Part shown: positions 346-1,981 of the stretch, piece by piece | Numbering within the stretch: the stretch's first letter is position 1 | Layout: every line of letters starts with the position of its first letter | Assembly: GCA_013203345.1 (NCBI GenBank) | Contig: JABMQF010000011.1 | Location: 1-54,602 of the forward strand | Origin: Candidatus Woesearchaeota archaeon | GTDB taxonomy: Archaea; Nanobdellota; Nanobdellia; Woesearchaeales; UBA11576 | Length of the DNA: 54,602 nt | Direction: 5' to 3' | Notes under the pieces: model-generated | What the model was told of the DNA's origin: nothing | The model's input: only the letters and a program-made list of their open reading frames with translations | Databases searched by the model: none | Program-made: the position numbers and the translations under genes

Positions 346-852
346 TTATTCTATTGTGAAATATTGAGGGTTATAAAATTCAAATTCTTGTCTTATTTGA
401 GATTCATGTCTCCTTTTTGCAGTTGGAGATAAGAAGATCTTTTTCAATGTATCAATATATAATTCACCCCGAACATATTTGATATCTGGATTGAGATAGT
501 GTTCGCTAAGACTTTCTATACAGGAATCATCTACATCAATTCCTAAAATTAAACCCCCATCACCATATTCAAAATTCAAAGCATATTTTTTAGTTGGTTC
601 AATATTATTTACCACAGTTATACATTTCACCCTATGTTCAATTTCGCATTCACCATAATGAGTAGATACCCATTCTAAAGCAAATTGGTCAATTGTCTTT
701 CCAGGATATTCTTTTTCAAAACTTCTGGATGGTTGCTCACGAAATATCCGCTCCAAAAACTCAATTTTTTGTTCTAAAGGTGAAAGAATTGCGCCAACTC
801 TAGCTATTGATATCCCCGCGCGTATGTTTGTACCATGATAAACTAATGTCAT
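346..852 (-). CDS. hypothetical 168-aa protein; possible ADP-ribosyltransferase-like fold (tentative)
   Basis: ATG at 852 gives a clean 168-codon ORF. A TATA-like TTTATTAA (875-882 on the minus strand) lies 23 nt upstream. The N-terminus LVYHGTNIRAGISIARVGAILSP resembles the H-G-[ST]...G...P first motif of PARP/DarT-type ARTs. The later Y and E motif positions are not securely identified. Confidence 0.55.
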   Translation of the reverse strand: MTLVYHGTNIRAGISIARVGAILSPLEQKIEFLERIFREQPSRSFEKEYPGKTIDQFALEWVSTHYGECEIEHRVKCITVVNNIEPTKKYALNFEYGDGGLILGIDVDDSCIESLSEHYLNPDIKYVRGELYIDTLKKIFLSPTAKRRHESQIRQEFEFYNPQYFTIE

Positions 853-901
853 GTAAATAAGAGCAAATAAAGACTTAATAAACCTTTCGAAGAATAACTA
901 C

Positions 902-933
902 TCAGAAGTAATAAAATATCCCTGCGGCAGGAT
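902..933 (-). repeat. copy 1 of a 32-nt repeat derived from the tRNA-Tyr 3' end plus T-rich trailer
   Basis: Plus strand TCAGAAGTAATAAAATATCCCTGCGGCAGGAT is 29/32 identical to copy 3 (2122-2153). It contains the small palindrome ATCC(C)TGC/GCAGGAT and lies between two minus-strand genes. Confidence 0.8.
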
Positions 934-985
934 GTTGAGAAAGTTTTGAGTATTAGTGATGTGCTAAAACAAAAACACACCAAAC

Positions 986-1981
986 TTATGCCTTCAAAGT
1001 TCTTCTCAATATACAAGAATAATCTCTATCTCGCAAATACCCTAACAAAACTTGTTTTGTATCATTTCCAGATAGTTTTGTGATTTTTCCATCACCTTTC
1101 CCACACATATATGGACATCTATAAAGTTCACCATCATAATCAACTGTTGCAGATGAACCCGCACCCATCTGGCATTGTCCATTGACAGATGTACTGTGCG
1201 CAAGACCAAAATCACTATGCCTTTTAGCTAATTCTTCAAGACGTTTTTGAGTGTCTAAGTTAGGATGTGGCTGGAAATCAGTATTGCAAATGAAGAATAT
1301 CCTATTTTCATTAGCAGACATCCTTAATCTCGCTACCTTCTGCCCATCATCGTCCAGATCATTTATTGAAACAACATAATTCATACCTAGCCTCGTCGTA
1401 CTTTCTGTTGGCCGGTTAGGATGATCTTCATAGGTCGAAATCAATCTTCTTAGATTTCTCGCGATTTCCGCCTGATTCTGTAATGGCTTTTTGGATGCCT
1501 GATATTCTTTTCCAGCAAAAAATTCATCATCTATGAATCTATTTCCAAATAAACTTATCATCACATTGGTCTCATTTTCAGCCAGAAAATTGCAGGTTCG
1601 CACATCAAGATTATTTCCTGCAGTAAAAATATAAGATTGGATGCCCTTGGTATTAGAATATTTTATTTTTTCCATAGTTTCGTCTGTCAATCTTGGATGA
1701 AGTGGATTTCCTCTTCCATTAATTGTGATGAACTTTGCATCATAATTCGCAGAGAAATAATCAATAACCTGTTTTATCTCGCTCATAGATAATCTTTCAT
1801 TAATTTTGATTCCTTGCGTCACGCAACCTTTACATGCTTGTTCCAATACACCCATATCTAATTCTACCAGTTCAGAACTTTTTTCACAATAGTTAGCAGA
1901 AGGCATGTTCAGTATAGTGATGGAATTATCTAAATCCTCAATCTCTTCCAATTTCTTTGTGATTTCAAGCTTTAGAGCCAT
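986..1981 (-). CDS. radical-SAM-like enzyme with non-canonical CX17CX2C cluster loop and SPASM/twitch-like Cys-rich C-terminus
   Basis: 331-aa ORF starting at ATG 1981, with TTTATAAA (2009-2016) 27 nt upstream. Motifs seen: NYC-x17-CKGC (nt about 1823-1888), FITINGRGNPLHP (GGEP-like SAM motif), and C-terminal CQMGAGSSATVDYDGELYRCPYMCG (like the SPASM/twitch G..v.pdG.vypC pattern). The canonical CX3CX2C is absent. Confidence 0.6.
   Translation of the reverse strand: MALKLEITKKLEEIEDLDNSITILNMPSANYCEKSSELVELDMGVLEQACKGCVTQGIKINERLSMSEIKQVIDYFSANYDAKFITINGRGNPLHPRLTDETMEKIKYSNTKGIQSYIFTAGNNLDVRTCNFLAENETNVMISLFGNRFIDDEFFAGKEYQASKKPLQNQAEIARNLRRLISTYEDHPNRPTESTTRLGMNYVVSINDLDDDGQKVARLRMSANENRIFFICNTDFQPHPNLDTQKRLEELAKRHSDFGLAHSTSVNGQCQMGAGSSATVDYDGELYRCPYMCGKGDGKITKLSGNDTKQVLLGYLRDRDYSCILRRTLKA

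Follow-up and report, generated by a model that had tools for sequence, protein, structure and literature searches.

Radical S-adenosylmethionine (SAM) enzymes of the SPASM/twitch group, such as anSME, ChlB, CteB, SkfB, EpeE and BlsE, share a partial TIM-barrel core, a C-terminal cysteine domain and the signature CX9-15GX4C. Within the same superfamily, QueE is shorter and has no twitch domain. A QueE with the spacing CX14CX2C provides a precedent for an extended cluster loop (PMC4389238). Among ADP-ribosyltransferases (ARTs), Tpt1 is made of an N-terminal RNA lobe, which bears the Arg-His-Arg of an essential tetrad, and a C-terminal NAD+ lobe, which bears the fourth residue, an Arg (PMC6333775). 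Tpt1 and DUF952, which resembles the C-lobe of Tpt1, form the H-H-h group, in which an HX[S/T] motif contacts the proximal ribose of NAD+ (PMC8120803). We analyzed two genes related to these groups on contig JABMQF010000011.1, the whole of which (54,602 bp) is called the window hereafter. They encode a 331-residue and a 168-residue protein, taken by an initial annotation, made from the sequence, for a radical SAM-like enzyme and an ART-like protein forming the cargo pair of an undescribed system. Each protein belongs to a new, uncharacterized family within these well-known superfamilies. The best reading of their genes is that they are unrelated and separately transcribed, lie on the chromosome of a DPANN-type archaeon and are adjacent by chance just downstream of an intron-bearing tRNA-Tyr gene; we give this reading a probability of about 0.72.

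The two genes are adjacent and co-oriented, with a spacer of 133 nt. This arrangement was looked for elsewhere by running the hidden Markov models (HMMs) of both families on six-frame translations of 43 related loci and of the window. Thirty radical SAM loci came from species-representative genomes, and further loci were obtained by exact look-up. Not one of the 32 other radical SAM loci had an ART-like gene as a direct neighbor of the enzyme gene, and none of the five ART-like loci contained a member of the radical SAM family. In a tblastn search over the collected loci, the 168-residue protein was found only in the window and in one other locus (L001). The two families are thus not linked, and the proposed pair, whose members are adjacent in no other locus, does not outlive this comparison. 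The ART-like homologues have varying neighbors, among them genes of the kind of PolB, Cdc48, TFIIB, Rad50/Mre11 and UvrA. The ART-like loci inspected contained neither a DarG-like antitoxin gene nor a macrodomain gene. A PADLOC search gave no convincing defense profile for either gene: the radical SAM protein weakly matches pVip (E = 0.0098, 13.4 bits), which is generic radical SAM similarity, and nothing matches the 168-residue protein.

The window carries open reading frames (ORFs) which, from their translations, encode archaeal-type ribosomal proteins S7, S12 and L15e and a family-B DNA polymerase, and the hosts of the radical SAM homologues are Woese-, Pace-, Nano-, Aenigm- and Micrarchaeota. 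The window matched none of 50,697 phage records by megablast or tblastn, so that a phage origin was rejected, and a PHROGs search returned nothing useful. Taken together, these observations identify the window as part of a DPANN-type archaeal chromosome.

Across DPANN, the radical SAM family is vertically conserved and has another usual neighbor. A tandem Lrp/AsnC protein of about 328 residues, made of two Lrp/AsnC units, is encoded in 20 of the 28 radical SAM loci for which upstream sequence was available, and in 17 of those 20 its gene is directly adjoining and divergent. This protein (loci L007-L034, for instance L009 6916-7899) has a mean column identity of about 70% and an invariant C-terminal YQVHKYNFCPS-like motif. 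Its best family and PDB matches are the Lrp/AsnC regulators FL11, LrpA and LrpC. It scores 81-50 bits against genuine Lrp/AsnC regulators versus about 30 against AhbA/B, and regulators account for every PDB profile match at E <= 1e-3, among which neither NirDL nor AhbAB appears. We therefore rejected it as an AhbAB/NirDL-type decarboxylase and read it as probably a dedicated regulator of the radical SAM gene.

A gene for a protein of about 230-280 residues, called c3, also adjoins the radical SAM gene, before or after it, in six loci (L012 7943-8635, L013 7331-7999, L015 2145-2831, L017 9005-9709, L034 5031-5740, L043 1827-2669), and in some of them the start and stop codons of the two genes overlap or touch. 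The c3 protein has a weak full-length match to a haem-oxygenase-like "iron-containing redox enzyme" family, and its invariant residues (E75, H82, E139, E145, H170, H173 and D174) are taken to be putative di-iron-like ligands. A putatively O2-dependent enzyme beside a radical SAM enzyme is an odd pairing. Elsewhere, the radical SAM gene is a conserved housekeeping-type gene, divergent from an Lrp regulator and sometimes translationally coupled to c3. Neither the tandem Lrp orthologue nor c3 was found on this contig. The window does encode a 326-residue tandem Lrp/AsnC protein (35337-36317, minus strand), 33 kb from the radical SAM gene. It was discarded as a displaced partner, being a paralogue with only 25-32% identity and no C-terminal YQVHKYNFCPS. 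Locus L008 holds both the Lrp orthologue and a paralogue like this one.

Upstream of both genes lies a tRNA gene, as the initial annotation had supposed in placing the pair in a tRNA-linked context. Neither ARAGORN nor Rfam reported any tRNA for the window. Reading of the sequence revealed an acceptor stem, CCCTGTG…CACAGGG-A, from 2300 to 2139 on the minus strand, and only after removal of two introns in silico did ARAGORN call a clean tRNA-Tyr(GTA) (Table 1). The precursor fold retains the acceptor and T stems (z = -2.46). The 3' end of this tRNA and its T-rich flank, …GGAT-TTTTATTACTTCTGA, are present in three direct copies (2119-2156, 2033-2070 and 899-936), and the exact 15-mer of the repeat occurs at these three places only in the window. 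The second and third copies are part of 86-nt units, 72% identical to each other. The radical SAM gene lies within an 1134-bp unit bracketed by these 86-nt repeats, at the end of the contig.

In the unit between the two genes, a T-rich tract follows the stop codon of the radical SAM gene and a TATA-like box precedes the ART-like gene. Since each gene is preceded by an 86-nt unit that ends in a TATA-like box, each appears to have its own promoter. The unit between the genes is orthologous to the region upstream of the closest homologue of the 168-residue protein (53% identity, L001 400-906), in a locus that has no radical SAM gene and whose flanks are recognizably orthologous to those in the window. 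In the window, the radical SAM gene looks like an insertion between the tRNA and the ART-like gene. The homologue in L001 is also found downstream of a tRNA, 224 nt from a tRNA-Thr(TGT) at 105-176. Adjacency to a tRNA was nevertheless rejected as a general property of the ART-like family, as ARAGORN reported no tRNA near the ART-like genes in L037-L041. The repeat motif was absent from all 43 related loci, and the repeats may be decayed recombination junctions or a duplicated promoter/terminator unit.

Table 1. Positions in the window of the two genes, of the motifs of their products and of the tRNA gene and repeats beside them.
Feature	Position	Strand	Basis
Radical SAM enzyme, 331 aa, twitch-type DPANN-wide family	986..1981	-	ORF, homologues, PF04055/NCBIfam, AlphaFold2 and Foldseek
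Cluster loop C32-x17-C50-x2-C53	1823..1888	-	Canonical CX3CX2C, its first Cys followed by 14 inserted residues
GGE-type SAM-binding motif region FITINGRGNPLHP	1694..1732	-	Family consensus NGRGDPFHP; G89 and G91 invariant
Twitch-like auxiliary-cluster region C270-x13-G284-x4-C289 and C323	1013..1174	-	Invariant residues; weak TIGR04085 match
Stand-alone ART-fold protein, 168 aa, archaeal family	346..852	-	HMMER relatives, AlphaFold2, Foldseek
Y5-H6-G7-T8 ... S24-P25, region of the NAD+-ribose-contacting motif HX[S/T]	778..840	-	Conservation; alignment with yeast Tpt1
tRNA-Tyr(GTA) gene; introns of 56 nt (position 37/38) and 34 nt (T-loop)	2139..2300	-	ARAGORN after in-silico splicing
Repeat copy A, tRNA 3' end and T-rich flank …ATCCGGCCACAGGGAT-TTTTTATTACTTCTGA	2119..2156	-	Direct-repeat family D3
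Repeat copy B, 86 nt, before the radical SAM gene, with the TATA-like box CATTTATAAA at its end	2009..2094	-	D2 and D3; alignment A5
Repeat copy C, 86 nt, in the spacer of the two genes (72% identity with copy B), with the TATA-like box GGTTTATTAA	875..960	-	D2 and D3

Both ORFs lie where the initial annotation had placed them, and the peptides on which it had based its assignments were all recovered: FITINGRGNPLHP (residues 84-96) and CQMGAGSSATVDYDGELYRCPYMCG (270-294) in the 331-residue protein, LVYHGTNIRAGISIARVGAILSP (residues 3-25) in the 168-residue one. Their conservation in the two families, given below, makes these motifs more than coincidental. Sequence searches of the PDB with both proteins and with both family profiles were uninformative, and the folds were resolved only by structure prediction followed by Foldseek.

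The 331-residue protein proves to be a radical SAM enzyme, and 135 full-length homologues share about 45-63% identity with it. Taken alone, it scores 13.4 bits against PF04055, whose cutoff is 29.5 bits, and it has 13 weak NCBIfam matches, all to radical SAM or SPASM families. Among 32 full-length aligned members of the family, 16 match PF04055 at E <= 0.01 (best 2.3e-8), and the NCBIfam matches, to AhbC, NirJ1, tungsten-cofactor maturase, NrdG, PapB, MftC and others, are radical SAM throughout, with scores far under the curated cutoffs (some 20-40 bits against 650). The AlphaFold2 model (predicted local distance difference test, pLDDT, 94; predicted template modeling score, pTM, 0.93) gave 65 Foldseek matches in the PDB at E <= 0.001, and the best 50 of these 65 are all radical SAM enzymes, led by anSME, ChlB, CteB, TigE, SkfB, EpeE, BlsE, AbmM and viperin (E about 1e-6, TM 0.5-0.57, identity 12-14%). 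Model and matches support the partial (beta/alpha)6 TIM-barrel core of the superfamily.

The GGEP-like motif seen in the initial annotation corresponds to a family motif NGRG[DN]P, with D or N where E is usual. G89 and G91 are invariant in the 32-sequence alignment, N88, R90, P93 and P96 are conserved in at least 90% of the sequences, and the region falls within the PF04055 and PapB profile matches. Profiles, cysteine alignment and structure therefore bear out the radical SAM assignment that had been made from motifs. One full-length homologue (P0077, 50% identity, with a canonical CX3CX2C) is annotated as coming from a candidate division KSB1 bacterium, and may reflect cross-domain transfer or a binning error.

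The cysteines C32, C50, C53, C270, C289 and C323, together with G284, are invariant in the 32-sequence alignment. Among 116 full-length homologues, 30 have an ordinary CX3CX2C in the columns of C32, C50 and C53 (for instance P0077, P0078, P0092 and P0094), and in 85 the first two cysteines are separated by 13-21 residues, mostly 16 or 17. The remaining one, P0011, was missed by the anchor pattern, and the same extended loop is visible in its sequence. As the cysteine columns are shared with canonical relatives, the "split" triad is a clade-specific insertion in the CX3CX2C loop. C32, C50 and C53 would hold the [4Fe-4S] cluster that binds SAM, and the enzyme should cleave SAM reductively at this cluster.

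At the C-terminus, 115 of the 116 homologues have CX13GX4C and the last one CX14GX4C. TIGR04085 (SPASM) weakly matches residues 270-305 (13.7 bits, cutoff 27), and PF13186 is matched by one of the 32 family members. The conserved C-terminal cysteines are C270, C289 and C323 only; C293, the cysteine of "YMCG" in the quoted peptide, falls outside the invariant or nearly invariant columns, and the seven-cysteine motif of SPASM, which provides for two auxiliary clusters, was not found. With C323 as the only further conserved cysteine, this is a twitch-like domain, expected to hold one auxiliary cluster at most. The proposed SPASM/twitch likeness of this segment is thus kept for the twitch signature and lost for a full SPASM domain. 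C270, C289 and C323 would hold one auxiliary cluster, whose fourth site may be open or occupied by a non-cysteine ligand, as only three cysteines are conserved.

The family shares with the SPASM/twitch enzymes the core, the C-terminal cysteine domain and the CX9-15GX4C signature. It differs from them by its low identity, by scores that approach no curated family cutoff, by three conserved C-terminal cysteines instead of the seven of full SPASM, by a conserved N-terminal extension KLEITKKLE…ILNLP, and, in most members, by the 13-21-residue insertion in the cluster loop. No peptide-substrate gene or context of ribosomally synthesized and post-translationally modified peptides was found for it. 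The weak NCBIfam scores, the structural matches and the CX13GX4C domain make it a distinct family within the SPASM/twitch group. The precedent of QueE, to which the initial annotation had appealed, holds for the loop (PMC4389238). The resemblance is limited to the loop and is not family-level homology: no QueE family was matched in NCBIfam or Pfam, and the present family, unlike QueE, has a twitch domain. We found no literature specific to this radical SAM family in DPANN.

For the 168-residue protein, nothing was found by sequence searches of Pfam, NCBIfam, PADLOC or the PDB, and an indexed search gave a single relative. It is not an orphan: the indexed search was too insensitive, and an exhaustive HMMER search with a two-sequence profile gave 115 relatives, 73 of them below 1e-10 and nearly all full-length (about 155-180 residues). 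Among 60 aligned members no Pfam family was matched, and no ART family appeared at E <= 1. The AlphaFold2 model, built with the family alignment, has a pLDDT of 96.5, and its best 49 Foldseek matches in the PDB all have the ART fold. The top match is yeast Tpt1 (7yw4, E = 6.6e-5, TMt 0.63), and archaeal Tpt1/KptA (8tfi, 9lda), DarT (7omv, 7yk3, 7omy), CC0527/DUF952 (2jqn, 2o0q), cholera and pertussis toxins, pierisin, scabin and Arr were also recovered. In a viral structure library, the matches were uncharacterized proteins, one DarT and one Tpt1. By its predicted structure, the 168-residue protein is an ART-fold protein, as its HG[ST] opening had led the initial annotation to guess. It was rejected as a diverged copy of c3, from which it differs in fold and motifs. 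Two ART-like paralogues lie side by side in tandem in L039 (5451-5972 and 5968-6501), and likewise in L040.

The residues of the motif are strongly conserved in the 60 relatives: Y5 in 59, H6 in 57, G7 in 56, T8 in 54, S24 in 59 and P25 in 55. I16-A17, R74 and G100 are also conserved in at least 90% of the members, and F/Y126 in 93%. K76 is found in 72% (43/60), the position being otherwise variable, S79 in 80%, with T in the window protein, and an acidic residue at position 106 (E/D106) in 80%. Judged by strand order, the canonical Glu position is probably in the F/Y126-x-P128 strand and not at E/D106, and the family looks like the Glu-less H-H-h type. When the family profile was compared with PDB sequences, the only ART match was yeast Tpt1, which is not significant alone; in this alignment Tpt1 residues 117-137, HGTNLQSVIKIIESGAI-SP, face HGT…IA..GAIlSP of the family.

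The gene product stands alone as an ART-fold protein; its closest counterpart is the NAD+ lobe of Tpt1/KptA, with which it has in common the HGT…I…GAI-SP motif. R74 lies just before the next core strand and would be the equivalent of the Arg of the Tpt1 NAD+ lobe. Unlike Tpt1/KptA, the protein begins directly at the YHGT strand (residues 2-9) and thus lacks the entire N-terminal winged-helix RNA lobe, and its position 76 is K or variable, without a conserved His. In the model, the SP motif is followed by an insertion of about 45 helical residues, and none of the 60 members matches PF01885. The protein resembles one lobe of Tpt1, that for NAD+, without being a Tpt1 itself. CC0527/DUF952 and DarT are likewise small or stand-alone ART folds, with TM of only 0.4-0.5 to the model, and neither DUF952 nor DarT was matched in Pfam. 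The protein probably binds NAD+ through YHGT and SP, and, with its near-invariant R74 and common K76, may act on a phosphorylated or nucleic-acid substrate.

Several observations weigh against chance adjacency of the two genes. They are neighbors with the same orientation, and the 86-nt units upstream of them are alike, so they could be co-regulated here even if they are not an ancestral pair. In L025, one distant ART-like relative of 199 residues is encoded 3.2 kb away from the radical SAM gene, on the other strand and beyond four intervening ORFs. With two families spread through the lineage and genomes of some 1 Mb, we estimate this co-occurrence to be at chance level, and chance adjacency to be roughly 1-2% per locus. 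The window covers one contig of the genome, and the Lrp partner may exist elsewhere in it. A two-gene defense or modification system, carried as cargo at the tRNA gene, would draw on the same proximity and shared upstream repeat, on a GC content of 0.34-0.36, slightly under the ~0.38 typical of the window, on the weak pVip match and on the presence of the DarT toxin among the ART-fold relatives. The pVip match is generic, though, PADLOC is blank for the 168-residue protein, each gene is preceded by a promoter-like element of its own, the radical SAM family is kept across DPANN with a different partner, and the ART-like homologues sit in housekeeping neighborhoods. Such a system is largely refuted by the lack of co-occurrence elsewhere, and we hold it to be highly improbable. 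Less remote, if still unlikely, is that each gene is a cassette in its own right, inserted independently of the other at a recombination hot spot formed by the 3' end of tRNA-Tyr, with the repeats as decayed att-like sites or duplicated insertion junctions. This would explain how the radical SAM gene came to be separated from the Lrp partner, whose synteny with it in 20/28 other loci is lost here, and it agrees with the three direct copies of the tRNA end and flank, the repeat-bracketed unit, the position of the array at the contig end and the tRNA-Thr upstream of the homologue in L001. Yet no integrase or transposase was identified nearby, in a scan that covered only a few neighboring ORFs, and the similarity of the copies is strongest in the flank past the tRNA end and not within the tRNA, unlike classical att sites. 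The repeat motif is moreover missing from the 43 related loci, and a nearby tRNA from the other ART-like loci L037-L041, and a local duplication of a promoter/terminator unit explains the repeats equally well.

Two further alternatives bear on the function of each protein. The radical SAM enzyme and its tandem Lrp-like neighbor could form a tetrapyrrole-modifying enzyme pair, comparable to the Lrp-derived sirohaem decarboxylases AhbAB or NirDL with AhbC, AhbD or NirJ. NCBIfam matches point in this direction (AhbC in 14/32 members, NirJ1 in 12/32, AhbD in seven), and the Lrp partner weakly matches AhbA/AhbB, with NirdL-like_HTH just over the cutoff. AhbAB is described as structurally homologous to Lrp-type transcription factors (PMC4145669). 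Against the idea, DPANN archaea are generally without tetrapyrrole synthesis. The radical SAM matches nevertheless fall far below the curated 650 bits, the single best NCBIfam E-value belongs to tungsten-cofactor maturase, and the partner's scores and PDB profile matches favor the regulators, which leaves this pair very unlikely compared with an enzyme gene and its regulator. The 168-residue protein, for its part, could be a pseudo-ART, that is, a non-catalytic, NAD+/ADP-ribose-binding or regulatory protein and not a transferase. No canonical H-Y-E or R-S-E triad can be assigned to it, K or a variable residue replaces the second "H" of the Tpt1-type H-H-h, the acidic residue 106 is only partly conserved, and the missing RNA lobe is the bearer of three of the four catalytic residues in Tpt1 (PMC6333775). 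DUF952/CC0527 is likewise without proven activity, although Tpt1, AcrIF11 and Arr work with non-canonical triads (PMC8120803). The near-invariance of Y5, H6, G7, T8, S24 and R74 at a mean column identity of about 29% argues for a conserved ligand site under selection. On balance we find the pseudo-ART doubtful, while giving it more credit than the other alternatives, and keep the reading of an ART-fold protein that probably binds NAD+.

Elsewhere in the window, divergent from the tRNA and radical SAM side, a gene at 3076-6120 (plus strand) encodes a very acidic protein of 1014 residues with no Pfam match, and contains internal direct repeats of 112 nt and 53 nt, at 5167-5467 and 5602-5873. At 37721-39590 (minus strand), two overlapping ORFs encode proteins of 420 and 204 residues whose N-termini, from a reading of the translations, resemble an AAA-type ATPase and an RloB-like protein; these could be a defense-type pair.

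For the biology of these archaea, there is no new system here, and the pairing brings nothing mechanistically new. That a two-intron tRNA is missed by standard finders makes "no tRNA" calls in DPANN contigs unreliable. More speculatively, and with little confidence on our part, the 3' end of tRNA-Tyr would be a gene-capture site, at which single genes with their own promoter units were inserted successively, each duplicating a tRNA-end-like junction. If true, this would mean a small cassette-acquisition mechanism in DPANN archaea, either integrase-independent or of a kind not seen so far, and the inserted genes would be a displaced housekeeping radical SAM gene and an ART gene resembling the NAD+ lobe of Tpt1. 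The stand-alone Tpt1-like protein, encoded beside tRNA genes in two organisms, might act on RNA ends. Its family is a stand-alone archaeal ART-fold family nearest to the Tpt1 NAD+ lobe, and widens the set of Glu-less Tpt1/DUF952-like ARTs. The radical SAM family, for its part, is DPANN-wide and well conserved, and is kept in organisms with very few genes; its members, some having 13-21 extra residues in the CX3CX2C loop and some not, form a natural series.

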